Shown: positions 9,427 through 64,000 of the stretch, piece after piece
How positions within the stretch are numbered: the stretch's first letter is position 1
How the letters are laid out: the number at the start of each line of letters is the position of its first letter
Assembly (NCBI GenBank): GCA_050874585.1
Contig: JBNMKZ010000004.1
Coordinates: 7-64,006, forward strand
Reading direction: 5' to 3'
DNA length: 64,000 bases
Origin: Verrucomicrobiota bacterium
GTDB taxonomy: Bacteria > Verrucomicrobiota > Kiritimatiellia > RFP12 > UBA1067
The notes under the pieces: generated by a model
Database searches by the model: none
Seen by the model: the letters and a program-made list of their open reading frames with translations, nothing else
What the model was told of the DNA's origin: nothing
Position numbers and translations under genes: made by a program

Positions 9427-10610
9427 ACATCTGCTTTGAGACTTTTGGCTGTCGGCTCAACCGTGCGGAAGCACTGGAGGATGAGGCTCGCTATCTTGCC
9501 GAGGGACATCGTGTCGTTTCGACACATGCGGATGCCGATCTGATTGTGGTTCGTGGGTGTTCGGTGACGGCGAGGGCGCAGAAGGACTGTGAACGCCTGA
9601 TTCGCCATCTTGAACAGAAGTATCCGGCGAAGCGTATTGTCGTTGTTGGCTGTCTGCCCAGTGCCAAGCGTCGTTCGCCGCCCGCGCTTTCGGAGTCCTC
9701 GGTGGGGGCGATTCCGACGCGGACGGCCCGTGCCTACCTCAAGGTTCAGGATGGGTGTTCGGGGAGATGTTCGTTCTGCATTGTGCCGCAGTTTCGCGGC
9801 AAATCCGTCTCCATCCCCTTTGACGATGTGCTGGAGCGTGCGCGGCGGTTCATCGAGAGCGGCTATCATGAGATTGTCGTGACGGGTTGCAACCTGTCGC
9901 TCTATGCGTCGGGCGGTCGCCGGCTCCCCGAACTCGTGTCATCGCTTGCCGACCTCTCGTCCTCGTGTCGCATTCGCATTGGTTCGCTCGAGCCAGGGGC
10001 CTGTGCACAGGAGACGGTTCATGCAATGGCGGAAAGGCCGAACATTTGCCGGTTTCTCCATATCCCCGTTCAGTCGGGTTCGAATCGCATTCTCGCGGCC
10101 ATGCACCGCCCCTATCTCATTGCGGATGTTGATGCATTGATTTCCGCGGCGGTTCACACCATGCCGCTGATTGGCATCGGGTGCGACCTGATTGCGGGCT
10201 TCCCCGGCGAAACGGAACTCGACTTCCGCCAAACCCAGGGGTTTCTTGCGCGGCATCTTCTCGCGAATGCACACGTCTTCCCCTATTCGCCGCGACCGGG
10301 GACGCTTGCGGCCGGCTTGCCGGGCGCACTGCCGGAAGATGTCCGCCGCCAGCGGGCGCGGCAGTTGGCGGCGCTGGCGGACGAGAGTCGGCGCAAGTTT
10401 GCCAAGCGGTTTATCGGGCGGTTCGTCGATGTGGTCGTGGAGTCCGAATCGGCCCTCAAGGGCTGGACGTCCGAGTACCTGTGGTTCGAGCGTTCGCAGA
10501 TCGATTTGGTTGGAATGCGTCCGCTCGTCTCGCACCGCAAGGAGTCCATGCGCTTCCAGGTGAGAGCCGCGCATGGGGGCGTTCTCTACGGGGATGGGGA
10601 CTTGGTCTGA
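9423..10610 (+). CDS. mtaB: MiaB/MtaB-family radical SAM methylthiotransferase
   Basis: N-domain FETFGCRLN and radical SAM CSGRCSFC. ATG 9423 overlaps the tcdA stop (ATGA). Confidence 0.8.
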   Translation: MNICFETFGCRLNRAEALEDEARYLAEGHRVVSTHADADLIVVRGCSVTARAQKDCERLIRHLEQKYPAKRIVVVGCLPSAKRRSPPALSESSVGAIPTRTARAYLKVQDGCSGRCSFCIVPQFRGKSVSIPFDDVLERARRFIESGYHEIVVTGCNLSLYASGGRRLPELVSSLADLSSSCRIRIGSLEPGACAQETVHAMAERPNICRFLHIPVQSGSNRILAAMHRPYLIADVDALISAAVHTMPLIGIGCDLIAGFPGETELDFRQTQGFLARHLLANAHVFPYSPRPGTLAAGLPGALPEDVRRQRARQLAALADESRRKFAKRFIGRFVDVVVESESALKGWTSEYLWFERSQIDLVGMRPLVSHRKESMRFQVRAAHGGVLYGDGDLV

Positions 10611-12456: not shown

Positions 12457-12612
12457 ATGAGTCAGCACGCATCTCTTAAGGGTTCAGGAAAGATTACTTC
12501 CAAGCGCAACGTCCTCAAGCGTTTTGAGCGCGTCAACTTGCTGCAGAAGCGCGGCGAGTGGAAGGAGGGTAGCCGCGGCCTCGGTCTCAAGAAGACCAAG
12601 CCGGAGGCGTAA
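12457..12612 (+). CDS. small basic protein, 51 aa (below the ORF-track length cutoff)
   Basis: Hand translation gives MSQHASLKGSGKITSKRNVLKRFERVNLLQKRGEWKEGSRGLGLKKTKPEA. It has its own promoter and a strong terminator. It resembles the small basic proteins of PVC-group bacteria as I recall them; this was not verified. Confidence 0.65.
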   Translation: MSQHASLKGSGKITSKRNVLKRFERVNLLQKRGEWKEGSRGLGLKKTKPEA

Positions 12613-13290: not shown

Positions 13291-13446
13291 GCCGCGTGTG
13301 CCGTGGGGAGAACTTGCCTATTGGGAAGGAAGGACGGGCTCGTGCCTACGAAGACGCGCTCCCATCGGGACGAAAGCGTTCTCTTTTCCGCAGGAAGAGG
13401 GGCGGATATCCCGAAGGGAACGGGTTTTGATGCCCATCAGGAAGGG

Positions 13447-13530
13447 CAAGCACTAAGGTGGTTTGGATAAAGCACTAAGGTGCTTTGCTCAAAGGACTAA
13501 GGTGCTTTGTTGAAAGGACTAAGGTGCTTT
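13447..13530. repeat. four 18-bp 7-4-7 near-palindromes at exact 22-bp spacing (array I core)
   Basis: Units CAAGCAC-TAAG-GTGGTTT, AAAGCAC-TAAG-GTGCTTT and AAAGGAC-TAAG-GTGCTTT (x2) start at 13447, 13469, 13491 and 13513. Confidence 0.9.
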
Positions 13531-13612
13531 CCCTTCGTATTCCGCAACGCAGCCCTTCCTTATGGGCAGAGCAACCCTTCCTATTGGTGCAAAACGCCCA
13601 TCTTTTTGGGCG
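13531..13612. repeat. right arm of array I: CCCTT/CCCAT motifs every 22 bp, ending in a CGCCCA/TGGGCG hairpin
   Basis: CCCTT at 13531, 13553 and 13575; CCCAT at 13597. They are mirrored by AAGGG 13442, ACGGG 13420 and AGGGG 13398 about a dyad at 13488.5. Confidence 0.7.
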
Positions 13613-30287: not shown

Positions 30288-30379
30288 TCTGGGATGCGCA
30301 ACCCAACGGGTCTAACTTGCGCAACCGAAGGGGTCTGGGATGCGCAACCCAAAGGGTTTAGGTTGCGCAACCTAAAGGG
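30288..30379. repeat. four tandem 23-bp units with a TGCGCAACC core (array II, left arm)
   Basis: tctgggatgcgcaacccaacggg / tctaacttgcgcaaccgaagggg / tctgggatgcgcaacccaaaggg / tttaggttgcgcaacctaaaggg. Unit 4 contains the perfect palindrome GGTTGCGCAACC. Confidence 0.9.
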
Positions 30380-30463
30380 AAAGGACTAAGGAGGTTTCTT
30401 CAAAGGACTAAGGTGCTTTGATCAAACCACCTTAGTGCTTTGTGCAAAGGACTAAGGTGCTTT
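30380..30463. repeat. four 18-bp 7-4-7 near-palindromes at 22-bp spacing (array II core)
   Basis: AAAGGAC-TAAG-GAGGTTT, AAAGGAC-TAAG-GTGCTTT, AAACCAC-CTTA-GTGCTTT and AAAGGAC-TAAG-GTGCTTT start at 30380, 30402, 30424 and 30446. This is the same unit family as 13447-13530. Confidence 0.9.
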
Positions 30464-30749
30464 CCCGTTCTCCTGCTTGTCTTCACTCGTGGAGACAAGC
30501 CTCTCCACTCTCTGTAATCGTCAAAAACCCCGTTTGTGATGAGCATTTCCGCATCGATTCATGCAGTCGCGGGAGCTCGCATCCGCGCGAACGGGCGCAG
30601 GGTGATGCGCAGGTCCCGCCTGACGGCCCCGTCGTGCTCGTCGGGATTCTGCGCTCCCGGTCGGGCGAGGTTCCTTCCTCTTTTACGGACCCATTCGGTT
30701 TTACAATTTTCCGATTTCTTTTCTGCACTTGCACAGGAGGCGCGGAATT

Positions 30750-54859: not shown

Positions 54860-56575
54860 TTACGCGAGAAGCGCACGAATGGCGTCGACGGCTCCGTCGG
54901 GCGCAACAATCTTCATCTGCGACTTGTCCTGGTCGCGGCGCTTGATCTCGATGCCGCCATTGGCGAGCCCCTTCGCGCCAACGACGGCACGCACGGGGAA
55001 TCCGATGAGGTCGGCATCCTTGAACTTCACGCCGGGACGCTCCGCACGATCGTCCACGATGACATCAATGCCCGCCGCCTCCAGGCTGGCTTCCAGTGTC
55101 TCGGCGGTCTTGGCGACCTCGGGCTGGTCGGGATCGAGCAGGTCGATGACGACCTGGTAGGGCGCGACCGAGGCCGGCCAGATGATGCCGTCCTTGTCGT
55201 GGCTCTGCTCAATGACGGCCTGAACGGTGCGGCTGATGCCGATTCCGTAGCAGCCCATGACCATGGTCTGCTCCTTGAGTTCGGCCGTCTTGTAGGTCGC
55301 GTGAAAGGCATCCGTATACTTGGTGCCGAGTTTGAAGACGTGGCCGACTTCAATGCCGCGCTTGATGACGAGGGGCTTGCCGCACTTCGCGCAGATGTCG
55401 CCGTCCTTCACCACGATGAGATCCGTGTAGTCCGATTCGGCAATCGAGCAGTCGCGGGCGAGGTCAACGTTCTTGAAGTGGAAGTCATCCTTGTTGGCAC
55501 CGACGATGCAGCCCCGTGCGCCCTTGAGGCCGATGTCGCAGACGATTCTCAGCGACTGGTCGGCGGGTTTCACCGGACCGACTGAACCGGCATTCGCGCC
55601 GGAAGCCTTGAGCACCGTTTCGTAGTCGGCCAGCTCGACTTTCTTCGCATTGAGGAAGTGGCGGAGCTTGACCTCGTTGACATCCCTGTCGCCCTCGACG
55701 CAGACCATGACGGGCTTGCCGTCGGCGGAATAGATGAGGGACTTGACGAACGCCGAGCCAGGCACGCCCATGAACGCGGAAACCTGGTCAATCGTCTTCG
55801 CCCCGGGCGTTGCGACCTCCTCGTAGGCCGGGCATTCGGGGTCGTGTCGTTCGGCAACCTTGCGCTCGGCCTTTTCGAGATTCGCGGCATAACCGCAGGC
55901 ACCACAGAAGGCGATGCCGTCCTCGCCTGCGTCCGCAAGCACGTGGAACTCGTGCGAGAACTTGCCGCCAATGTCGCCGGTGTCGGCCTCAACGGGATAG
56001 GCCTTCAGTCCGCAGCGGGTGAAGATGCGCTTGTAGGCCTCGAACATGGCCATGTAGCTCTTGTCGGCGGCTTCCATGGAGACGTCGAAGGAGTAGGCAT
56101 CCTTCATCATGAATTCCTTTGAGCGCATCAGGCCAAAGCGCGGGCGAATCTCGTCGCGGAACTTCCACTGGAACTGGTAGACGGTCACGGGAAGCTGGCG
56201 GTAGGAACTGATGACGCTGCGAATGACTTCGGTCACGGTTTCCTCGGCCGTCGGACTCATCGCGTAGTCATGCTGGGCGCGATCCTTGACGCGGAACATG
56301 TTCGGACCCATCGATTCCCAGCGCCCGGACTGCTTCCAGAGCTCGGCCGGCTGGAGGACGGGCATCGTGATTTCAAGGGCGCCCGCACGGTCCATCTCTT
56401 CGCGGATAATGCGCGTCACTTTGGCAAAGGCACGCTGGCCGAGGGGAAGATAGGTGTAAAGCCCGCCGGCGAGCTTCTTGATAAGCCCAGCCCGGACGAG
56501 GAGCTTGTGAGAGTCAATTTCGGCATCACCGGGATTCTCCCGGAGCGTCTGAATGAGCGATTTAGTCCATTTCAT
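54860..56575 (-). CDS. proS: proline--tRNA ligase
   Basis: 571 aa, bacterial-type ProRS with an editing insertion. Confidence 0.95.
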   Translation of the reverse strand: MKWTKSLIQTLRENPGDAEIDSHKLLVRAGLIKKLAGGLYTYLPLGQRAFAKVTRIIREEMDRAGALEITMPVLQPAELWKQSGRWESMGPNMFRVKDRAQHDYAMSPTAEETVTEVIRSVISSYRQLPVTVYQFQWKFRDEIRPRFGLMRSKEFMMKDAYSFDVSMEAADKSYMAMFEAYKRIFTRCGLKAYPVEADTGDIGGKFSHEFHVLADAGEDGIAFCGACGYAANLEKAERKVAERHDPECPAYEEVATPGAKTIDQVSAFMGVPGSAFVKSLIYSADGKPVMVCVEGDRDVNEVKLRHFLNAKKVELADYETVLKASGANAGSVGPVKPADQSLRIVCDIGLKGARGCIVGANKDDFHFKNVDLARDCSIAESDYTDLIVVKDGDICAKCGKPLVIKRGIEVGHVFKLGTKYTDAFHATYKTAELKEQTMVMGCYGIGISRTVQAVIEQSHDKDGIIWPASVAPYQVVIDLLDPDQPEVAKTAETLEASLEAAGIDVIVDDRAERPGVKFKDADLIGFPVRAVVGAKGLANGGIEIKRRDQDKSQMKIVAPDGAVDAIRALLA

Positions 56576-56583
56576 AGGCGGAT

Positions 56584-56592
56584 ATTATACCA
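56584..56592 (-). promoter_or_regulatory. extended -10 TGGTATAAT for proS, near-leaderless
   Basis: TATAAT ends 8 nt before the start codon at 56575. A 25-nt repeat-tail module abuts it (56595-56619). Confidence 0.6.
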
Positions 56593-56676
56593 TAAACCGC
56601 CTGCTCGGGGGCTTGCGCGGCGGCCTGCGGGGGGTCGGGGGCGCCGCCCCCGTCCCTTCGCCAAGGCGGCATCGGC

Positions 56677-57102
56677 CTAACGTCGGTTGACGCGGTCGCC
56701 CTTGAGCCGCCAGCTGAAGTCGCTCGTCGAAAGGTCCAACTTGGCAAGGGGGCTGACGCGCACGACAAGCTTGTTCTTGCTCGACAATCTCCCATCCTTT
56801 TCGACCGACCCCTTCAGAAACGGCTGGAGGCGAAGGTAGCCATCCAGATTGACGGCGTTTCCCTTTTCAAGGTGCTCCCGGACCAGGCCCATCACGCACT
56901 CAAACTGGGACTTCAAGAACTCCTCGCTCCCCATGGTGGCACCCCTATCCTTCGCACCCTTGATCAGCTCGTTGAACCCGACGGTCTTCTGCCCCAGTAT
57001 CCTCGGCGTATGCGTCACGGTCTTCCGAATCGGATGCTTGAAGTCGACAACCTGGTACTCCAGGACCTTCCTGTTGGCATACACCTCCAGTTTCTTGCTC
57101 AT
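56677..57102 (-). CDS. HU-like (Bacteroidota-type HU-HIG/DUF4469-like) DNA-binding protein
   Basis: The internal start at 57102 is preceded by the SD aaggag. 141 aa, MSKKLEVYANRKVLEYQVVDF...; the pattern resembles histone-like HU-HIG proteins as I recall them. Confidence 0.6.
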   Translation of the reverse strand: MSKKLEVYANRKVLEYQVVDFKHPIRKTVTHTPRILGQKTVGFNELIKGAKDRGATMGSEEFLKSQFECVMGLVREHLEKGNAVNLDGYLRLQPFLKGSVEKDGRLSSKNKLVVRVSPLAKLDLSTSDFSWRLKGDRVNRR

Positions 57103-57157
57103 GAACCCGAACTCCTTTCTTCGCAAATCCAGTCCCTCATCAACCGGAATGGGAGGA

Positions 57158-57166
57158 ATTGTACCA
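57158..57166 (-). promoter_or_regulatory. extended -10 TGGTACAAT for the HU-like gene
   Basis: Read on the minus strand, about 55 nt upstream of the start at 57102. Confidence 0.5.
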
Positions 57167-57284
57167 TTTCGTACGCATGGACCGCAAGCGGATTCCACGG
57201 TCGCGGCGCGGCAAAAGTACAGGAGCGCGGCGAAATGTCCACAGGAGATAGTGCGATCCTGTACATCAGACGAGCGAGTCCTAC

Positions 57285-57616
57285 TCATGAATGCGGGTCA
57301 TTCCTCTCATGCAAAAGGGCAAGACATCTCATGAACAAGGGTCAACCATGTCACAACGAAGGGCGGAGATGTACAGGACAAAGGGAAAGTACCATGCTAC
57401 TTTTGATAAAGCACCATGCTGGTTTGTCCAAACCACCATGCTACTTTTCACAAACCAGCATGGTGGTTTCCGCTTGTCATAAGATCCCTGACCCTTCTTC
57501 ATGAGATGTCCGACCCTTCTTCATGAGATGTCTTGCCCTTTTGTATGACAGGAATTTCACCAAATCAAGGGAGGAATTGCCCGTCGTCATGAGATTGTTT
57601 GGCCCGTTTCTTAGGA
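57285..57616. repeat. dyad-symmetric array of about fifteen 22-bp-phased units (array III)
   Basis: Left units TCAnnAnnAAGGGnnA start at 57285, 57307, 57329, 57351 and 57372. Four 7-4-7 palindromes with a CATG centre start at 57386, 57408, 57430 and 57452. Inverted copies of the left units start at 57489, 57511, 57533 and 57577. The symmetry axis is at 57427.5. Confidence 0.9.
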
Positions 57617-57617
57617 A

Positions 57618-57898
57618 TGCCGCGGGATGCCTGTGGTCGGCCTTGTCCCTCCTCTCGGGCGAGGGGGTGAGCGCGAAGTGTCGCGAGTGAGGTCTTCCAC
57701 GGGGCGCCACCGTGAGAGTTGTCTTGTCCGAAACCAGTGATAACCACCGAGGCTGGACAGGCTAAGTAAACTTTTGTTGCCCAGGCGCGAAAGGTGAGCG
57801 CAACCGTGGAAGCCGAGACCGAGCGACAGCTTCGCGCAAGCCCCCGAGCAAGCGGTTCCTGCGGGGCAGAACACGAAAACCTTCAGTGAATTTCAGTG
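57618..57898 (+). repeat. long repeat copy A (candidate structured RNA or mobile repeat)
   Basis: 57618-57867 matches 58173-58422 with 2 mismatches in 250 nt. The shared tail CTTCAGTGAATTTCAGTG ends at 57898. Confidence 0.9.
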
Positions 57899-58126
57899 TC
57901 GGTCGATAGACCGTTCAGTGTGTTCTGTGGCAGAAAACAAGCACTCCCTCCACCCACGCCGTCGGATCATCCGTCCCTTCGGGACTGCGAACCCCTCAGT
58001 TCGCCGTCGCCGCGCCCCACCCGCTCCTCCCTCCGCCCGCTCGTGGGCCTGTCCGGGGCTTCGCGAACGGCAGTCGCATGGACGGGGAATGGCACATTCG
58101 GCCCTGCTTGGGAGGCCGGGGAAAAG

Positions 58127-58495
58127 CCACACCGCGCAGGCGTTCAGAAGGCGCAAGCGCGGCAAAACCATCTGCCGCGGGATGCCTGTGGTCGGCCTTG
58201 TCCCTCCTCTCGGGCGAGGGGGTGAGCGCGAAGTGTCGCGAGTGAGGTCTTCCACGGGGCGCCACCGTGAGAGTTGTCCTGTCCGAAACCAGTGATAACC
58301 ACCGAGGCTGGACAGGCTAAGTAAACTTTTGTTGCCCAAGCGCGAAAGGTGAGCGCAACCGTGGAAGCCGAGACCGAGCGACAGCTTCGCGCAAGCCCCC
58401 GAGCAAGCGGTTCCTGCGGGGCTGACACGAAAATTCACGAAAGCCGCCTGACGGCGGACACGAAACCGCCGCGCCCTCTTCAGTGAATTTCAGTG
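58127..58495 (+). repeat. long repeat copy B with a 5' extension shared with copy C
   Basis: The 5' extension CCACACCGCGCAGGCGT...CGCGGCA...TGCCGCG matches 61040-61121. The core is 99% identical to A. There is a 3' insertion relative to A. Confidence 0.9.
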
Positions 58496-58831
58496 ACCGC
58501 CGCTAGGCATGGTAAACTCCAGGGGTAAAAATGGGTGTAGATTGCGAAGTAAGTGGACAGGGGCGACGGTAGGTCGGCGAGGGTCGCTTGTCCCCATGTC
58601 TTGAAGGCACGGATTTGCCTTGGAAGCCAAGACTCCACTGTGGGGCCTGCGTGTCCCGCGCGGAGTCCGTTCATTGGAGATTCCCCAATTTTTGAGGCAA
58701 GAAAATCGCCGCGCCCTTGAAAACAAAGGGTGAAGTGGCGATTTCCGTTTTGCGCCAAGTGAAAATCCGACAATAGGAGCACCGAGGCGTTCCGTGTCGA
58801 GACGCAGAAATTGGCCGTTGCGAGGGGTTCG

Positions 58832-60112
58832 TCATCCCGTGTTCATTCCGAAGAATGCGAAGAGCGACGCCCCGTCCCTCTTCTCGGCTTCCTCGGGGTC
58901 GAACCCGCGCCACCTGCGGCCTCTTTTCAGGATGTCGCTCGCTCCGTCCGCGATGGCGTAGAAGTGGAATTCCGGCACGTCGTGTATCCTGAACGACATG
59001 CGCGCGACGCTTCTTGCGATGACGTCGTGCCTCTCCGAGTTCCCGCTCCATGCCATGCTGAAGTAGACTGTAGTCAGGACGATCGCGGCCAGGGCCTTGA
59101 TCTTGGCGTACCTGAACAGGCGCATGTCCTCGAGGCTGTAGGACTGCTTGACGTGGCGGATGGTGTCCTCGACCCTCCAGCGGGTGATGTATCCCTCCAC
59201 GACCTGCCAGAGCGCCTCGCGCGTCGTTGTCTTCGCGAGGGTCGTCAGCAGCATCATCGGCTTCTGCCCGAACCCCCTCACGACGACCATGTGCAGGAGC
59301 CTGTCGGGGATGTCGGGAAGCCGCACGGGCACGGCGCCGAACTCGATCGTCACGCGACGCTCCTTCCCGTGGTGGTCGAACGTCACGACCTCCCTGTAGC
59401 GCATCCGGCACTCCCAGGCGAGTTCGCCGCACATGACGTTGCGCTTCCAGCTGCGCACGTACCTTTCCTTGAGTCGGACGATGAAATCCAGCCCTTTCCC
59501 GAGGAAATGGCGGTAGAACTCGATGTTGTCTCCGCCACGGTCGTACACGAATATCCCCCGCCTCTTCGTGTGCCTGGTGATTCCATCCACGATGGGCTTC
59601 ACCTCCTCGTTCTCGCTGACGAACCCCGGCGAGTCCGCGGACCACAGCCTGAAGTGCAGCGGAATCGGCCTGCGGCCGCCTGATTCGCGGGCTACGGCCA
59701 TGCAGCCCCAGAAGCCGAGGTTGTCGCCCACCTCGCCCTTGCTCCCGTCCCAGACCTTGGCGAGGTACTCCATCTTCTTCGCGTAGGGCTTCTGCACGTC
59801 GGACGGGTCCAGGATGATGAGCGCGTTCCTGTGGACCCTCCTGGCGCCCTCGGAGGCGATGAGGCGGTGCAGCCCCGCCTCCAGCCCGTCCGACGAGAGC
59901 ATCCGGCTGAGCCTGTCCTCGACCTTTTTCGGGGTGGTTTCCTCCTTCAGCGCGCGGACCACGGACGAGAGCTTCACGTCCTTCTCCGCCATGATCCCGT
60001 AGACCATGTCGCCTATGAAACGGGCGACCGGCTTGTGGAAATGGGGGGAAATCCTCCCCAGAAAAGATTCAAGTTGCCCGAGCAGTTTCGCCGCAATTGT
60101 GGTATCATGCAT
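58832..60112 (-). CDS. IS4-family DDE transposase
   Basis: 426 aa, with YDRGGD and the IS4 Y-x2-R-x3-E-x6-K signature (YITRWRVEDTIRHVK). Confidence 0.9.
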   Translation of the reverse strand: MHDTTIAAKLLGQLESFLGRISPHFHKPVARFIGDMVYGIMAEKDVKLSSVVRALKEETTPKKVEDRLSRMLSSDGLEAGLHRLIASEGARRVHRNALIILDPSDVQKPYAKKMEYLAKVWDGSKGEVGDNLGFWGCMAVARESGGRRPIPLHFRLWSADSPGFVSENEEVKPIVDGITRHTKRRGIFVYDRGGDNIEFYRHFLGKGLDFIVRLKERYVRSWKRNVMCGELAWECRMRYREVVTFDHHGKERRVTIEFGAVPVRLPDIPDRLLHMVVVRGFGQKPMMLLTTLAKTTTREALWQVVEGYITRWRVEDTIRHVKQSYSLEDMRLFRYAKIKALAAIVLTTVYFSMAWSGNSERHDVIARSVARMSFRIHDVPEFHFYAIADGASDILKRGRRWRGFDPEEAEKRDGASLFAFFGMNTG

Positions 60113-60149
60113 GGCGTCGCCTTTCCTGTTTGGTGTTTAGCACTTCGGC

Positions 60150-60158
60150 ATTATACCG
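60150..60158 (-). promoter_or_regulatory. -10 CGGTATAAT for the transposase, within a CTTCGG/CCGAAG palindrome
   Basis: Read on the minus strand, about 38 nt upstream of the start at 60112. Confidence 0.5.
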
Positions 60159-60273
60159 AAGATCGAACTCGAAAGGCGACTCTCTTTCCCAAAAATCGGC
60201 TCATAACCGCGCAGACCGTCGCAACGTCTTGCCAGCGAAGAAAAATGGGGAACCTCCAAAAGCGGATACCCCG

Positions 60274-60322: not shown

Positions 60323-60398
60323 GGCGAGATAGCTCAGTTGGTAGAGCGCAGGACTCATAAGCCTAAGGTCAAGGGTTCGATCCCCTTTCTCGCCACCA
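60323..60398 (+). tRNA. tRNA with CAU anticodon (Met, or Ile2 if lysidinylated), encoded CCA, weak anticodon stem
   Basis: Acceptor GGCGAGA/TCTCGCC, D arm GCTC/GAGC, T arm AAGGG-TTCGATC-CCCTT, loop CTCATAA. The anticodon stem has C27-A43 and A31-G39 mismatches. Confidence 0.8.
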
Positions 60399-60434: not shown

Positions 60435-60887
60435 ATGAGAATCCTTTTTTGCTGTCACGGCAACATCTGCCGCTCACCCATGGCCGAATTCGTCATGAAG
60501 GAACTGGCCAGAAAAGCCGGGCGCACGGACCTTGTCATCGAATCCGCAGCCCTTCATACGGACGAAATTGGCAATGACATCCATCCCGGCACGCGTGCCG
60601 AACTGCTGAAGCACGGCATTCCCTTTGCACCCCGTGCCGCCTGGCAGCTGACGGCCTCGAAGGCCAAGTCATACGACCTTCTCATTGGCATGGACGACTA
60701 CAACATGGCGGACCTTCGGAGACTGGTCGAGCCTGCCGCGCGCGGCAAAATTCATCGTCTCCTTGCGTACGCAGGGCTTGACCGCGCCATCGCCGATCCG
60801 TGGTACACGGGGGACTTCGACGCGACCTATCGCGACGTTCTCCTCGGTTGCACGGCTCTCCTCAAGGAGATCGCCGCGCCCGCCTGA
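60435..60887 (+). CDS. low-molecular-weight protein-tyrosine phosphatase
   Basis: CHGNICRS (C-X5-R-S) P-loop at residues 7-14 and a DP motif (DPWY). Confidence 0.9.
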   Translation: MRILFCCHGNICRSPMAEFVMKELARKAGRTDLVIESAALHTDEIGNDIHPGTRAELLKHGIPFAPRAAWQLTASKAKSYDLLIGMDDYNMADLRRLVEPAARGKIHRLLAYAGLDRAIADPWYTGDFDATYRDVLLGCTALLKEIAAPA

Positions 60888-60896
60888 GGACGGCCC

Positions 60897-60920
60897 GTCC
60901 CTCTCTCGGGCGAGGGGGTG
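60897..60920 (+). repeat. solo copy of the hairpin module CCCTC-TCTCGGGC-GAGGGGG from the long repeat
   Basis: GTCCCTCTCTCGGGCGAGGGGGTG begins 10 nt after the phosphatase stop. The same module lies inside copies A, B and C. Confidence 0.7.
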
Positions 60921-61039
60921 CGGCACACGGGAAGGGTCGGTTTGAGCCGGCCGAGGCCTGCGGGCGAACCACGGAAAGGCGAAGGGTGGTTTTTAGCCGC
61001 AAGGGACGCAAAGGTCGCAGAGAGTGGGGGAGAGAGGCC

Positions 61040-61353
61040 CCACCGCGCAGGCGTGTGAAGGCGCGAGCGCGGCAGTTTGGGTGGCCTGCCGGACGGCAGG
61101 CCGGCAAGACCATTTGCCGCGTTTTGGCCTGTGGTCAGCCTGTTCCTTCTCTCGGGCGAGGGGGTGCGCGCGAAGTGTCGCGAGTGAGGTCTTCCGCGGG
61201 GCGCCACCGTAGGAGTTGTTTCGTCCGAAACCAGCCGTCTTGTCGAGGCTGGACAGGCTAAGTAAACTTTTGTTGCCCAGGCGCGAGAGGTGAGCGCAAC
61301 CGTGGAAGCCGAGACCGAGCGACAGCTTCGCGCAAACACACGAGCAAGCGGTT
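61040..61353 (+). repeat. long repeat copy C (diverged, roughly 87% identical to A in the core)
   Basis: Collinear with B, including the 5' extension. The 3' half GGCTGGACAGGCTAAGTAAAC...CAGCTTCGCGCAA is nearly identical. It ends directly at a TGATATAAT promoter. Confidence 0.9.
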
Positions 61354-61356
61354 TTA

Positions 61357-61365
61357 TGATATAAT
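61357..61365 (+). promoter_or_regulatory. extended -10 TGATATAAT immediately after repeat copy C
   Basis: Same junction geometry as the proS promoter. Its transcript would run through the poly-C tract toward the 61729 operon. Confidence 0.5.
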
Positions 61366-61483
61366 ATGCGCCGAAAGCGAGAATTAGCGGAGTTTGTGAT
61401 GGAGTCGGCGATGACTGAGATTCGCCCGAGGTGGCGTATAAGCGCACGAAACGGTGCGCCTGCGACTCCGTTTGCTAAGTTTA

Positions 61484-61500
61484 CCCCCCCCCCCCCCCCC
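61484..61500 (+). repeat. homopolymeric tract of 17 C
   Basis: Counted directly and cross-checked against the track translation (PPPPPP). Confidence 0.95.
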
Positions 61501-61728
61501 AGTAACAGGCGCGTGTGACGGGTGGCTGAGCCACTTCTTGCCTTTTGGACTGCGGATCCTCAGGATTCTCCGTACGGTTGCCCATCTGGCACATTTTTCC
61601 TTTTATTTCCTCTCGGGGCACATAGTTGTGCCCAGGTTGGAGTTTGTACGGCAAAGGCATGCCACTTCATTTTCCCGCGTGGGCGGCGGCCTTGGAGGTT
61701 GTCGCGGGAGAAGGAATGAAAGGGGTTG

Positions 61729-62172
61729 ATGATGCACGATGATATGCGATTGAAATATATGGTGGCCAAGGGACTTGGATGCCTCAATGTTCCATGTCTT
61801 GAAGCGTGCAATGAGAGTTGTCCTTGCGAGAAACTGAAGAATTTTGTTAAGGAGGAATCTAAGAAACCTTCTGCAAATACTGCCTCTCTTGAACTTGAAT
61901 GGGTGCATGTTCCTACATGGGAAAGTGTTGGCGTTCGGTTGAAGCGCGCGATTTCGATTGGGGTTGTGCTGGGGTTGGGGATACTTTTGGGTGCTGGGGT
62001 GGTGAAGGGATGTTGTTCAAATGAGAGAGAGATTAAGGTATCTTTGTCTAAAGACGGATACCAAATTGAGCGCCGTTTTGAATCGATAGAAGATTTTGAG
62101 AAGATCGGGACTAATGACCTTCGGCGTGTCATGAACGCGCTTGAGAGCCTTCACAAATCAGGTAATAACTGA
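61729..62172 (+). CDS. hypothetical single-pass membrane protein with a Cys-rich N-terminus
   Basis: SD gaaagggg upstream. N-terminal CLNVPCLEACNESCPC and TM segment AISIGVVLGLGILLGAGVV. Lower GC than the core genes. Confidence 0.55.
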   Translation: MMHDDMRLKYMVAKGLGCLNVPCLEACNESCPCEKLKNFVKEESKKPSANTASLELEWVHVPTWESVGVRLKRAISIGVVLGLGILLGAGVVKGCCSNEREIKVSLSKDGYQIERRFESIEDFEKIGTNDLRRVMNALESLHKSGNN

Positions 62173-62202
62173 GTTTAGAGGGCCTTTCCAAGGATACTGA
62201 AG

Positions 62203-62883
62203 ATGCAATGCGAAAAAGAGCAGCAGATTACTCCTCGCGCCATCTATGAGTCATTTTGGAAATGTCGCGATCTTGAAATCAACATGCTGTGGACGCGGCT
62301 GACTTTGTTGGGCGCGTTCATGGGCTTGACCTATGCCGGATATGGTACGCTGATTCTGAAAAGCGTCGACGGCATTGGAAATTGGGATGTCTTTCATCTT
62401 GTGGCCATTGGCGCGAGTAGCTTTGGTTTGCTCTTTTCGATTCTGTGGACGACGACCGCCAAGGGGTCGAAAGCGTGGTTTGAGCGGTATGAGGCGATGA
62501 TTGCCTATTTCCAGGAAACATACAAAGACTTGGGTCTCTTTGCGAGAACGGCGGGCGAGGATCTGGTTCTCTCGTATCTTGACGATGGCAATCGAAACGT
62601 CGTCCGGCGGTTGAGGCCCCTTGACACCGATTTGTTTTCGCAGTATGCCGGCGCCTATTCGGTTTCAAAAATCCCAATCGTCATGGGGCAGGTTTCGATT
62701 GTGGCGTGGGGCGTCATCGGAATCGTCCATGCGGTTGCCTGCGTGATCGGGCGGCGCGGCATTCTCGATTTCGTCCAGAATGTTCATGTCGGGGCAATTG
62801 CCGTGGCAATGGTTGTTGTGACGGCCATCAGTGCCTGCCTCGTCTGCTCCTGTGTCGGGAGCAGCGCTTTGAAGGGGAAGTGA
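62203..62883 (+). CDS. hypothetical 4-TM membrane protein
   Basis: 226 aa. An N-terminal amphipathic region, then a TM hairpin (LWTRLTLLGAFMGLTYAGYG / VFHLVAIGASSFGLLFSILW), a soluble linker and two more TM helices. Confidence 0.65.
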   Translation: MQCEKEQQITPRAIYESFWKCRDLEINMLWTRLTLLGAFMGLTYAGYGTLILKSVDGIGNWDVFHLVAIGASSFGLLFSILWTTTAKGSKAWFERYEAMIAYFQETYKDLGLFARTAGEDLVLSYLDDGNRNVVRRLRPLDTDLFSQYAGAYSVSKIPIVMGQVSIVAWGVIGIVHAVACVIGRRGILDFVQNVHVGAIAVAMVVVTAISACLVCSCVGSSALKGK

Positions 62884-62885
62884 AC

Positions 62886-63140
62886 ATGATGCGAGTTCCG
62901 GAACATATCGTTTCATTCGGACAGAGCGCATCGGGCGATTCTGGGGGGGCGGTGCGAAAACTTTTTTATTCCCCGCGTCACTTTTCCGTTCCGAGAAGGG
63001 AATATGCAGTAGAGGATATGGAAGACTCAATCTACAAAAAATGCGGACTCGCCCTCAACTGCATTCCAATGTCCGCAGAAATTGAGTTGGCTGAATATTG
63101 CTTCGGCGTGACAAAGGAAGAATCCCATTTGATTCGTTAA
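62886..63140 (+). CDS. hypothetical small soluble protein (84 aa)
   Basis: The internal ATG 62886 lies 2 nt after the upstream stop. No recognisable motifs. Confidence 0.45.
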   Translation: MMRVPEHIVSFGQSASGDSGGAVRKLFYSPRHFSVPRREYAVEDMEDSIYKKCGLALNCIPMSAEIELAEYCFGVTKEESHLIR

Positions 63141-63225
63141 TTCTGCAAAAACAAGCGATGTATAGATTCGCCCTTGTCTGGTCGCTTGCAAAATACATAA
63201 GGGAAACAGCATAAAGGAAGTCGCT

Positions 63226-64000
63226 ATGGTTAAAGAAACAACAATGGCAGAAGAAGAAGTAGGTGCTGCCATCACGCAAGGTGGAAACCCTGTAAATAAT
63301 AGCAAAGTTGATCTTACCCCAAGACTTGTTAAGGAACCGGCGGCAATTGCAAAACTCTGGGAGAAAATTGATGTCCGCCGGGGATCCTTTGAGATTCCGC
63401 GCCTGCGAAAGGACGGGTTCGTAGAGATGAACCTTGCCGGAACTGGAATTGAGAAGGCCATGTATGCACTTGGCAAGCCAGGGATTAAAGATATTATCAG
63501 TGTAGAGGCGATGGTATTCCCATGTGTTTCCATAGCCCAGAAGGTCGCTGCTGATCTTCGGTGGTATGAAAGGCTGAGATTCAAACCAAAGGATCGAACA
63601 GATTTGATTCCGCTAGCCAAAAATCAAAGGGATTATCGCGATCCGTGGTCAGATGGTAAATTCCCATCTTTTGAAGGCAAGACCTCTGGTAGTGAAATAA
63701 TTCCGCAATCATGTGTTTTGGATGATTGCCCTGCTTGCGATGGCGAGGGTACTAAACTTGGTAAGGTCTTTCAGGGACAAAAAGACAGAGGTTGGATTAC
63801 GTGTCGGCACTGTGATGGTACTGGGAAAGAAGGTGCATTGCTTTGCGATCATTGTCAGGGCCACGGAGGTTGGTATTCTCGTAGTCAAGTCAACCAGTAT
63901 GCCACGCAGCAGGTAAAGTGCGACAAATGCGATGGCTCCGGGAAGTTGCTGGCGGTGTTAAAGGCTCACAAGCAGGTGGATACGTATGAGAAGTTCGATT
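63226..64000 (+). CDS. hypothetical protein with four DnaJ-type CxxCxGxG zinc-finger repeats; 3' end beyond the window
   Basis: Not in the ORF track because no stop occurs within the window. SD aaaggaag precedes ATG 63226. Hand translation gives 258 codons without a stop, with CPACDGEG, CRHCDGTG, CDHCQGHG and CDKCDGSG at 63727-63941. Confidence 0.7.
   Translation, partial: MVKETTMAEEEVGAAITQGGNPVNNSKVDLTPRLVKEPAAIAKLWEKIDVRRGSFEIPRLRKDGFVEMNLAGTGIEKAMYALGKPGIKDIISVEAMVFPCVSIAQKVAADLRWYERLRFKPKDRTDLIPLAKNQRDYRDPWSDGKFPSFEGKTSGSEIIPQSCVLDDCPACDGEGTKLGKVFQGQKDRGWITCRHCDGTGKEGALLCDHCQGHGGWYSRSQVNQYATQQVKCDKCDGSGKLLAVLKAHKQVDTYEKFD

Follow-up and report, generated by a model that had tools for sequence, protein, structure and literature searches.

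A mosaic intergenic repeat with a long, unequally conserved hairpin in a lineage of uncultured human-gut bacteria

The repeat and its setting in the window

The + strand of the 64,000-nucleotide stretch of DNA analysed here (the window) carries three copies (A, B and C) of a non-coding repeat of about 300 bases, and the question raised by this locus is what such a sequence does, and on which strand. Motifs of the repeat are present three to four times in the window where 0 to 0.16 occurrences are expected, which is far above chance. The copies were delimited by alignment and by nhmmer. Copies A (57618-57857) and B (58125-58412) lie in tandem with a period of 555 nt, and are 99% identical in sequence. 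A is truncated on the 5′ side and has no 5′ extension. Copy C (61037-61353) is a complete unit, comprising a 5′ extension, small hairpins, a long imperfect hairpin and a 24-nt tail. A first-pass annotation of this region had described C as collinear with B, the 5′ extension included. This is confirmed by alignment, and C additionally contains a hairpin of ~33 nt (GGCCTGCCGGACGGCAGGCC) that is absent from B. The same annotation had estimated from a hand alignment that C is ~87% identical to A. Over the shared core we compute that 214 of 241 aligned columns are identical, i.e. 88.8% with gaps counted and 89.9% without.

The units of the wider family are 240-360 nt in length. They start with a 5′ extension, variable between copies and made up of small hairpins, and continue with a GC-rich hairpin, an imperfect hairpin of 170 nt and the 24-nt tail. 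The 5′ extension of C occupies 61037-61114 (all coordinates of this unit are on the + strand); in the alignments no other part of the family is as variable or as modular, and the GGCCTGCCGGACGGCAGGCC hairpin within it is optional. Hairpin 1 (61146-61164) is small and GC-rich, with the sequence CCTTCTCTC-GGGC-GAGGGGG. The long hairpin comprises a 5′ arm (61168-61208) placed by folding, an apical region (61209-61288) that includes a conserved loop (GTGATAACCACCGAGGC) and an AT-rich patch (61258-61278 in C), and a 3′ arm (61289-61333; GGTGAGCGCAACCGTGGAAGCCGAGACCGAGCGACAGCTTCGCGC). This 170-nt hairpin is predicted in folds of A, B and C, with an outer stem of ~35 Watson-Crick pairs in A and B, and it is found in the folds of every complete copy of the family. 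The unit ends with the tail (61334-61353), which gives it a sharp 3′ boundary; directly past the tail, unrelated or low-GC DNA begins at several loci. The 24-nt tail motif, GCGCAA-N-C-N-C-N-CGAGCA-N-GCGGTT, begins inside the 3′ arm, and occurs four times in the window compared with 0.01 expected.

The stem substitutions described by the first-pass annotation are present in our alignment. The 5′ arm of the long hairpin in C carries an A to G change (CTTCCACGG to CTTCCGCGG), and hairpin 1 carries a C to U change (CCCTC to CCTTC). A block of 95 nt had been said to contain a single change. There is indeed one difference between A and C, at 61287 (GCGCGAAAGG to GCGCGAGAGG), but the block as it was written is 89 nt long, and reaches ~95 nt once the preceding CGAGG is counted. 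A further claim was that a CCAG/CTGG stem is retained in C while its loop is replaced. The loop (at ~61235-61248 in C) has changed from TGATAACCACCGAGG to CCGTCTTGTCGAGG, with a 1-nt difference in length, but the helix is limited to the window copies; CTGG is CAGG, CATGG or CAAGG in most other members of the family.

A protein-coding repeat was considered and rejected. Reading frames shift between copies, and because a 1-nt indel in the loop breaks the frame between B and C the repeat is non-coding. A Pfam search of the spurious ORFs that lie over the element gave no domains, and the invariant arm shows no variation of the synonymous type.

On the 5′ side of A the window encodes ProS on the - strand (54860-56575, with its ATG at 56575) and an unannotated ORF, also on the - strand (56677-57288), and then contains nested palindromes at about 57290-57560. 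Between B and C lies an IS4-like insertion sequence at about 58672-60262 (its ends placed by eye) with a DDE_Tnp_1 transposase at 58832-60112, the only insertion sequence in the window. It is followed by tRNA-Met (60323-60398), with a promoter TTGACA-18-TATCAT, and by a gene for a low-molecular-weight phosphotyrosine phosphatase (60435-60887). A solitary hairpin-1 module is located at 60900-60918 (+ strand), 13 nt past the phosphatase stop codon, and a weak nhmmer match at 60873-60937 lies over it. After copy C the G+C content falls from about 58% to 49%. Here there is a conserved non-coding leader (61366-61725, + strand) with a run of 17 C at 61484-61500, which is common to the related loci L020, L024 and L028 described below; the sequence 61329-61716 is 84-90% identical to that of L020. 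Among the low-GC set of genes that follows the leader, one encodes an 8xMP membrane protein and another a DnaJ-type zinc-finger protein. A literature search on 8xMP gave nothing relevant, and PADLOC returned a marginal match only for the genes downstream of C.

Family members and their spread

Twelve further distinct copies were found on related contigs from gut metagenomes, giving 15 in all. They were recovered by way of the spurious ORFs that gene callers put over the element, after which the contigs were fetched. The loci (L020 and L024-L036) all come from human-gut metagenomes, including Hadza samples, and by nhmmer the element has the same relative strand at every one of them. The ProS and GyrA proteins of these contigs form clusters of at least 90% identity, and therefore all the copies derive from one species- or genus-level lineage. 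We note that the gene callers predict hypothetical proteins of 170-310 aa over the units, and that assemblies break at them.

Rfam 15 has no family that matches A, B or C at the gathering score or at E ≤10, and in the window tRNAs alone pass; the leader and unit of L032 likewise gave nothing meaningful in Rfam. No matches were found by blastn against phage and plasmid collections. An 18-mer from the AT-rich patch (a part that is variable across the family) gave 18 matches in genome contigs, all of which are chance 18-20-mers in unrelated AT-rich genomes. Patterns of 20 nt gave no matches and then three chance matches in JGI metagenome contigs, and an exact-pattern scan of viral contigs gave none. 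Judged by its sequence, the family is a previously undescribed, lineage-specific mosaic intergenic repeat of an uncultured human-gut bacterium with ~58% G+C.

Within this lineage the copies are both tandem and dispersed, over six or more unrelated loci, and the number of units per array varies between strains, with one in L024 and two in L026 and L020. A leader of ~400 nt upstream of units, containing palindromic GATGCCCATC motifs, is common to unrelated loci. L024 contains at 132-462 a variant unit with a different stem sequence. A 50-nt insertion is present in the 5′ arm of L028 and L030. Truncation has removed 5′ sequence from A and L029, and 3′ sequence from L030 and L036b. In L020a, L026b and L031 the optional GGCCTGCCGGACGGCAGGCC hairpin is decaying, and no compensatory changes accompany this.

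The dispersal over unrelated loci, the strain-variable copy number and the 5′ truncation of A and L029 would be consistent with a non-autonomous mobile element of MITE or REPIN type with an outward-facing promoter. The core of the unit is a long imperfect palindrome that would be recognized by a transposase, possibly as single-stranded DNA, and the + strand bias described below would then reflect folding of that strand during transposition. The sharp 3′ boundary at the tail fits this reading, as does the joining of a promoter to one end of the unit, a feature of Correia elements (PMC2649163). REPINs consist of two inverted blocks with a spacer between them, and this doublet folds into a long hairpin; they are non-coding, occur in multiple copies and are maintained within a single lineage (PMC3116915, PMC3337134). 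However, the arms of a REPIN are short REPs and the unit ends at them, whereas the arms here are internal, and homology continues past them for 100-500 nt in the 5′ direction and for 24 nt in the 3′ direction. The arms are also unequally conserved. No target-site duplication is visible at the boundaries read, and the 5′ boundary is ill-defined. No partner transposase was found; a Y1 transposase in particular is not annotated among the genes called around the copies (the 64 kb window and about 110 kb of relatives), and we know of no RAYT gene in this lineage. A mobile element is thus a rather unlikely explanation, although it is compatible with the transcribed intergenic repeat that we favour below. 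The unit does not have the terminal inverted repeats that delimit a MITE, since the arms are internal and homology extends beyond both, and a MITE derived from an insertion sequence was rejected because the sole IS of the window shares no ends with the arms.

The sequences that adjoin the tail suggest another possibility, that the tail is an attachment-type site at a hot-spot for recombination or integration and that the units are left over from successive insertions. Low-GC DNA starts exactly at the end of the tail, both in the 49% GC locus after C and in the AbiEi/AbiEii cassette of L024-L027. The tail of L020 is duplicated on both sides of a 90-nt segment, and the conserved leader precedes different gene sets in the window and in L020. 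Yet no integrase or recombinase gene adjoins any cassette, the units greatly exceed known attachment sites in length, and the majority of units have no cassette alongside. Moreover, the insertions in L030 and L036b break the unit at other positions, as happens with ordinary insertion and homologous exchange. We consider such a hot-spot very improbable.

Known recombination and retroelement sequences were also compared. Integron attC sites are imperfect palindromes of 60-140 nt with RYYYAAC / GTTRRRY core sites, found at the 3′ end of a cassette and next to intI. This identity was rejected for the repeat, given the length of the unit (240-360 nt), the lack of an ORF between units, arms that do not contain RYYYAAC / GTTRRRY and the absence of an integrase nearby. 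The repeat of a diversity-generating retroelement was also rejected. Copies of such a repeat differ only at adenines of the template, with a reverse transcriptase nearby, whereas A and C are distinguished by C to T, A to G and G to A changes and an indel, among others. No reverse transcriptase was found among the neighbouring genes, and a retron was rejected as well.

Pairing on the two strands and the unequal arms of the long hairpin

From four changes compatible with wobble pairing, the first-pass annotation had proposed that the repeat specifies a structured RNA on the + strand. The 15 distinct copies provide a broader view of this. A reference structure was derived from copy B and mapped onto their alignment (A5); G·U pairs were forbidden in the derivation, so that the structure favours neither strand. 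Non-Watson-Crick cells comprise 101 G·U, which would be tolerated on the + strand, versus 17 A·C, tolerated only on the - strand. Counted by site these become 27 and 9 (naive binomial p = 0.004); because the copies are related and belong to one lineage the cells are not independent, and such counts overstate the number of independent events. Pairing is possible in 90.8% of cells on the + strand and in 82.6% when the identical pairs are read on the - strand. When the register was slid by 1-5 columns as a control, the ratio of G·U to A·C was 0.65-1.8, and therefore base composition does not explain the bias. Folding energy is lower on the + strand in 10 of 12 complete cores.

The direction indicated by the original four events is thus maintained in the larger alignment, where G·U exceeds A·C against slid controls of about 1, but in the long outer stem alone (35 bp) the numbers are just 6 G·U sites versus 3 A·C sites. 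Changes that fit the - strand only are found in L020b (U to C and G to A), L029 and L028. The interpretation of the first-pass annotation is partly supported by these comparisons, and the + strand is the likelier functional strand. Strand-biased mutation could be responsible for part of the wobble bias.

The proposal of a structured RNA gains nothing from covariation, which is not above the level of shuffled alignments. With 15 copies of one lineage, a sample of low power, three pairs have changes on both sides versus 3.3 in the shuffles, and the covariation score of 0.098 (0.095 shuffled) was reached by 90 of 500 shuffles. In the long-range helix that joins hairpin 1 to the tail, columns 48/279 show an exchange of G-C for U-A, with four G-C and six U-A. 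The small apical GUG/CAC hairpin has lost its pairing in L020b and L028, and is rebuilt from other pairs in L030 and L031. RNAalifold places an alternative hairpin in the tail, which is unconvincing as an intrinsic terminator; its stem does not reach the U-run, and its one apparent covariation, from A-U to G-C (L020a and L026b), is at odds with A·C in L028 and L036a.

The strongest signal in the family is the difference between the two arms of the long hairpin. In alignment A5, which covers the 15 copies from the small hairpins onwards (the 5′ extension lying outside it), 3 of the 45 columns of the 3′ arm are variable versus 11 of the 41 in the 5′ arm (p = 0.018 by Fisher's test, rising to 0.06 when the insertion-linked columns are left out). 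By the same measure 53% of columns are variable in the small hairpins preceding the long stem (hairpin 1 included), 51% in the apical region and 35% in the tail. The 3′ arm is invariant even where the 5′ arm is interrupted (L028 and L030). Conservation of the 3′ half, noted earlier from the window copies, is therefore real across the family, but pairing alone does not explain it, since variation in the partner arm is about four times as frequent. Because pairing alone can account neither for the asymmetry nor for invariance opposite an interrupted partner, the 3′ arm must be constrained as sequence. Its conservation could reflect a site bound by a protein, ~45-95 nt ahead of the neighbouring transcription start, or the retained half of a processed hairpin.

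An invariant 3′ arm opposite a variable 5′ arm is what might be seen if one arm of a precursor were the product, and the units could be stand-alone structured non-coding RNA genes on the + strand, consisting either of the unit or of leader plus unit up to about 850 nt. The + strand wobble bias and the lower + strand folding energies point the same way, as do the small apical hairpin, rebuilt with compensation in L030 and L031, and the exchange of G-C for U-A in the hairpin 1-tail helix. Some small-RNA genes are multi-copy and tandem, and the arrangement of the repeat is similar. Possibly a double-strand-specific RNase cuts the hairpin, so that the 3′ arm and tail are kept while the 5′ arm acts as a pairing partner only. 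Against an RNA gene, no unit has a sigma-70-type promoter upstream or a terminator at its end, and the covariation is not significant. Optional hairpins decay uncompensated, many copies are truncated or interrupted, and the distribution is very narrow. The unit lies constantly against a downstream promoter, for which a cis element is a better fit. We regard stand-alone RNA genes as a minority possibility, though the likeliest rival of the reading favoured below.

A more particular version is that the repeat is a new lineage-specific structured RNA in which the hairpin is a processing substrate and the 3′ arm and tail are the product, with arrays standing at the entry to variable loci that resemble those of defence systems (the low-GC 8xMP/DnaJ-type zinc-finger locus, AbiE and ART-PolyVal neighbours). 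The 5′ arm would then evolve freely within the limits of wobble pairing, and the RNA could regulate or mark the loci. OLE, GOLLD, ROOL and HEARO are structured RNAs of several hundred nucleotides that are sometimes multi-copy, and often lie near mobile or defence genes. The repeat is like these in size, in extensive predicted structure, in its multiple copies and in its neighbourhood. Unlike the large RNAs of Rfam, it matches no model at E ≤10, its covariation is no higher than in shuffled alignments, and its copies decay in the manner of selfish or neutral repeats. We think this version unlikely.

Promoters beyond the tail and a proposed role of the unit

Every copy is oriented as its downstream gene, and the upstream genes are co-directional at five of six loci. 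Upstream of A and B the gene is divergent, and no promoter is present past the tail of either copy. By contrast with these internal units, the last unit of an array leads into a promoter within 7-8 nt at five independent places. At gyrA (L032 and L035), at a gene encoding 229 aa (L029) and at ProS the arrangement is tail, 7-8 nt, TGnTA(T/C)A(A/C)T, 6-9 nt and start codon. The sequence following the tail is GCGGTTTTTTGGTATAATATAGGGAGTATG at gyrA in both loci, GCGGTTTTTTGGTATACTATCCTCATG at the 229-aa gene and GCGGTTTATGGTATAATATCCGCCTATG at ProS, on the - strand of the window. The ProS gene has a tail remnant only, and this lies with its TGGTATAAT promoter (56584-56618, - strand) directly upstream of the leaderless-type ProS start. 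Right after the tail of C there is an extended -10 box, TGATATAAT (61357-61365, + strand), that points into the conserved leader and low-GC locus; the sequence after the tail in C, L020 and L024 is GCGGTTTTATGATATAATAT, preceding the conserved leader of 360 nt. In L033 and L034 the tail is followed by a complete TTTACG-17-TACAAT promoter for a TPR gene, which is 8 nt past the tail in L033.

The sequence TG[GA]TATAAT is located 5-10 nt before the start codon of eight long ORFs in the window. The same geometry of promoter and ATG at these ORFs makes the promoters after the tail credible, and with eight such cases leaderless-type extended -10 promoters would be the norm in this organism. Among these window promoters only that of ProS has a tail; the tail is therefore part of the repeat rather than a general component of promoters. 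The extended -10 promoters after the tail have no match to a -35 sequence, in contrast to the tRNA-Met promoter with its TTGACA. No sigma-70-type promoter was found upstream of the units. Neither was a hairpin followed directly by a U-run found at their ends, where the stem and the T-run are 24 nt apart. The leader has at its 5′ edge a TATATATAAGG box that could be a promoter, but that fits the tail of the upstream gene's terminator equally well.

The 3′ arm and tail precede the -10 box by roughly 20-95 nt, which is the zone of activator binding. The repeat might therefore be a regulatory module of double-stranded DNA, whose 3′ arm and tail bind a transcription factor or nucleoid protein, the hairpin being a by-product of inverted duplication. 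In favour of this, the adjacent promoters lack a -35 match, unlike that of tRNA-Met, and the 3′ arm is invariant even where pairing is disrupted. The upstream leaders also contain palindromic, operator-like motifs. With a DNA module, however, the excess of G·U relative to A·C and the rebuilding of the apical hairpin would go unexplained. In addition, the internal units of arrays (A, B, L020a and others) have no promoter and yet the same 3′ arm, while the other seven TG[GA]TATAAT promoters of the window have no tail. On this balance a purely DNA-level module is distinctly unlikely.

The explanation that we favour, while giving it somewhat less than an even chance, is that copy C is an ordinary transcribed intergenic repeat of the ERIC or Correia kind, with hairpins that act in cis and a 3′ end joined to the next promoter. 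We infer that the repeat would form the untranslated end of a + strand transcript from the transcription unit upstream. The hairpins of the repeat may then act in cis as 3′ structure in the RNA, i.e. as a barrier, a terminator or a processing site, and may also insulate the promoter immediately downstream. In many copies the tail is fused to an extended -10 promoter of the leaderless type, and the 3′ end of the unit probably modulates the promoter of the next gene. A simple role as barrier or terminator does not account for a 3′ arm that is four times less variable than its partner and is invariant despite the interrupted 5′ arm of L028 and L030. The 3′ arm, which hardly varies, and the tail probably serve a further function that depends on their sequence; they might bind a protein, for example, or remain as one half of the hairpin after processing. 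The repeats would also offer homology for expansion and contraction of arrays, and foreign low-GC cassettes are found alongside them.

Such a repeat has counterparts in other bacteria. The Correia elements (CREE) are ~100-155 bp in length, with terminal inverted repeats and a TA target duplication. In Neisseria these are multi-copy intergenic elements with an inverted repeat; their transcripts form hairpins open to binding or cleavage by RNase III, and a promoter at the end of the element can drive the gene alongside (PMC2649163). Like CREE, the present repeat forms a hairpin and has a promoter joined to one end. It differs from CREE in its length of 240-360 nt, its internal arms, its tandem arrays and the unequal conservation of the arms, and the two have no sequence similarity. 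CREE have an IHF site, whereas neither an IHF consensus nor a duplication was seen here.

ERIC sequences are 127 bp, and REP sequences 20-40 bp. ERIC/IRU and REP/BIME are imperfect palindromes in transcribed intergenic regions, and are modular mosaics with orientation-dependent effects on mRNA stability (in part after PMC2229807). The core hairpin of the present repeat, of 170 nt and 35 pairs, is unlike these, and it belongs to a different lineage. Promoter adjacency and a single invariant arm are features of this repeat and not of ERIC or REP.

If the structured-RNA reading were true, the repeat would be a new family of large RNA with a precursor-like asymmetry of its arms. If the transcribed intergenic repeat is the correct reading, it would be a further example of a hairpin-forming repeat reused as a combined transcript-end and promoter module, and an unusually large one, in an uncultured lineage from the human gut that depends on leaderless mRNAs. 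For annotation, recognition of the family flags the spurious ORFs called over its units. The repeats may also help to explain the exchange of the variable cassettes that lie beside them.

The C-run in the leader and the genes that follow it

The conserved non-coding leader that lies 3′ of repeat copy C contains an uninterrupted run of 17 C at 61484-61500 of the window. Its counterpart in the related human-gut metagenome contig L020 comprises 16 C (about 9842-9857, - strand); the length varies between strains. Assemblies stop at this run, and a second related contig, L024, ends there. A short ORF that spans the run is kept in both the window and L020 (ME S..IRPRWRISARNGA.ATPFAKFTPPPPP). The variable length together with the assembly breaks suggests that the low-GC locus that follows is controlled through slipped-strand phase variation or by a poly-proline leader peptide.

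Two different low-GC gene sets lie behind this one leader, at 61726-64000 in the window versus 6443-9943 in L020. Both include a gene for an 8xMP octameric membrane protein (62203-62883 in the window). The window set also encodes a protein with a DnaJ-type CXXCXGXG zinc finger from 63226 onwards, whereas that of L020 encodes an FGE-sulfatase-domain protein and a protein of 2122 aa. The region resembles a variable locus of the conflict or defence type; a PADLOC search for defence systems there returned a single marginal match.

We note that the L020 contig itself terminates within an acyltransferase-family gene, in 22 consecutive G (12489-12510). Either assemblies break at this homopolymer as they do at the C-run, or it is an artefact.

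Palindromes, cassettes and an insertion sequence around the repeats

A large nested palindrome, GCAAAAGGGCAAGACATCTCATGAA ... TTCATGAGATGTCTTGCCCTTTTG, lies directly upstream of copy A (57290-57560) and encloses repeats of ACCATGCTACTTTT. Related sequence, repeat family D1, is present at two further sites in the window, 13397-13533 and 30352-30466. At the equivalent site upstream of the arrays of tandem repeat units in related loci there is a different palindromic motif, GATGCCCATC, present twice in direct and twice in inverted orientation.

A cassette carrying AbiEi/AbiEii, with a lower G+C content, is located between two array units in L024 (840-2284), and also in L025, L026 and L027. It starts directly after a complete tail, the motif closing the unit, with GCTCC following GCGGTTTT; L020 lacks the cassette at the equivalent place. 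The window contains an IS4-like insertion sequence (about 58672-60262) with a DDE_Tnp_1 transposase gene (58832-60112, - strand) and, as read by eye, imperfect inverted ends TTGGAGATTCCCCAATTTTT and AAAAATGGGGAACCTCCAA. This insertion sequence sits ahead of the tRNA-Met promoter, inserted ~12 nt upstream of the -35 box.

Two genes lie ahead of the repeat unit that stands upstream of gyrA, one for an ART-PolyVal / LPD3 polyvalent protein and one that is Peptidase_C39-like (L032 6735-10122; L035 1603-4900). Genes of this sort are characteristic of DNA of conjugative or phage origin; in both contigs they adjoin gyrA, a core housekeeping gene.

In a scan of genome contigs, several MAGs of Patescibacteria / Levyibacteriota (L004-L007, L010, L013) also contained the 18-mer GCTAAGTAAACTTTTGTT of the repeat, with the match running to 19-20 nt. 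It may be part of a conserved gene of that group, and its occurrence there is unrelated to the element.

Putative promoters close to start codons

The sequence TG[GA]TATAAT occurs 5-10 nt before the start codon of eight long ORFs of the window, with starts at 264, 27794, 35087, 37110, 48290 and 53087 on the + strand, and at 56575 and 49866 on the - strand. ProS is among the window ORFs with this type of start, and in related contigs gyrA has it too. Judged from these sequences, extended -10 promoters and leaderless mRNAs appear to be in very wide use in the source organism.
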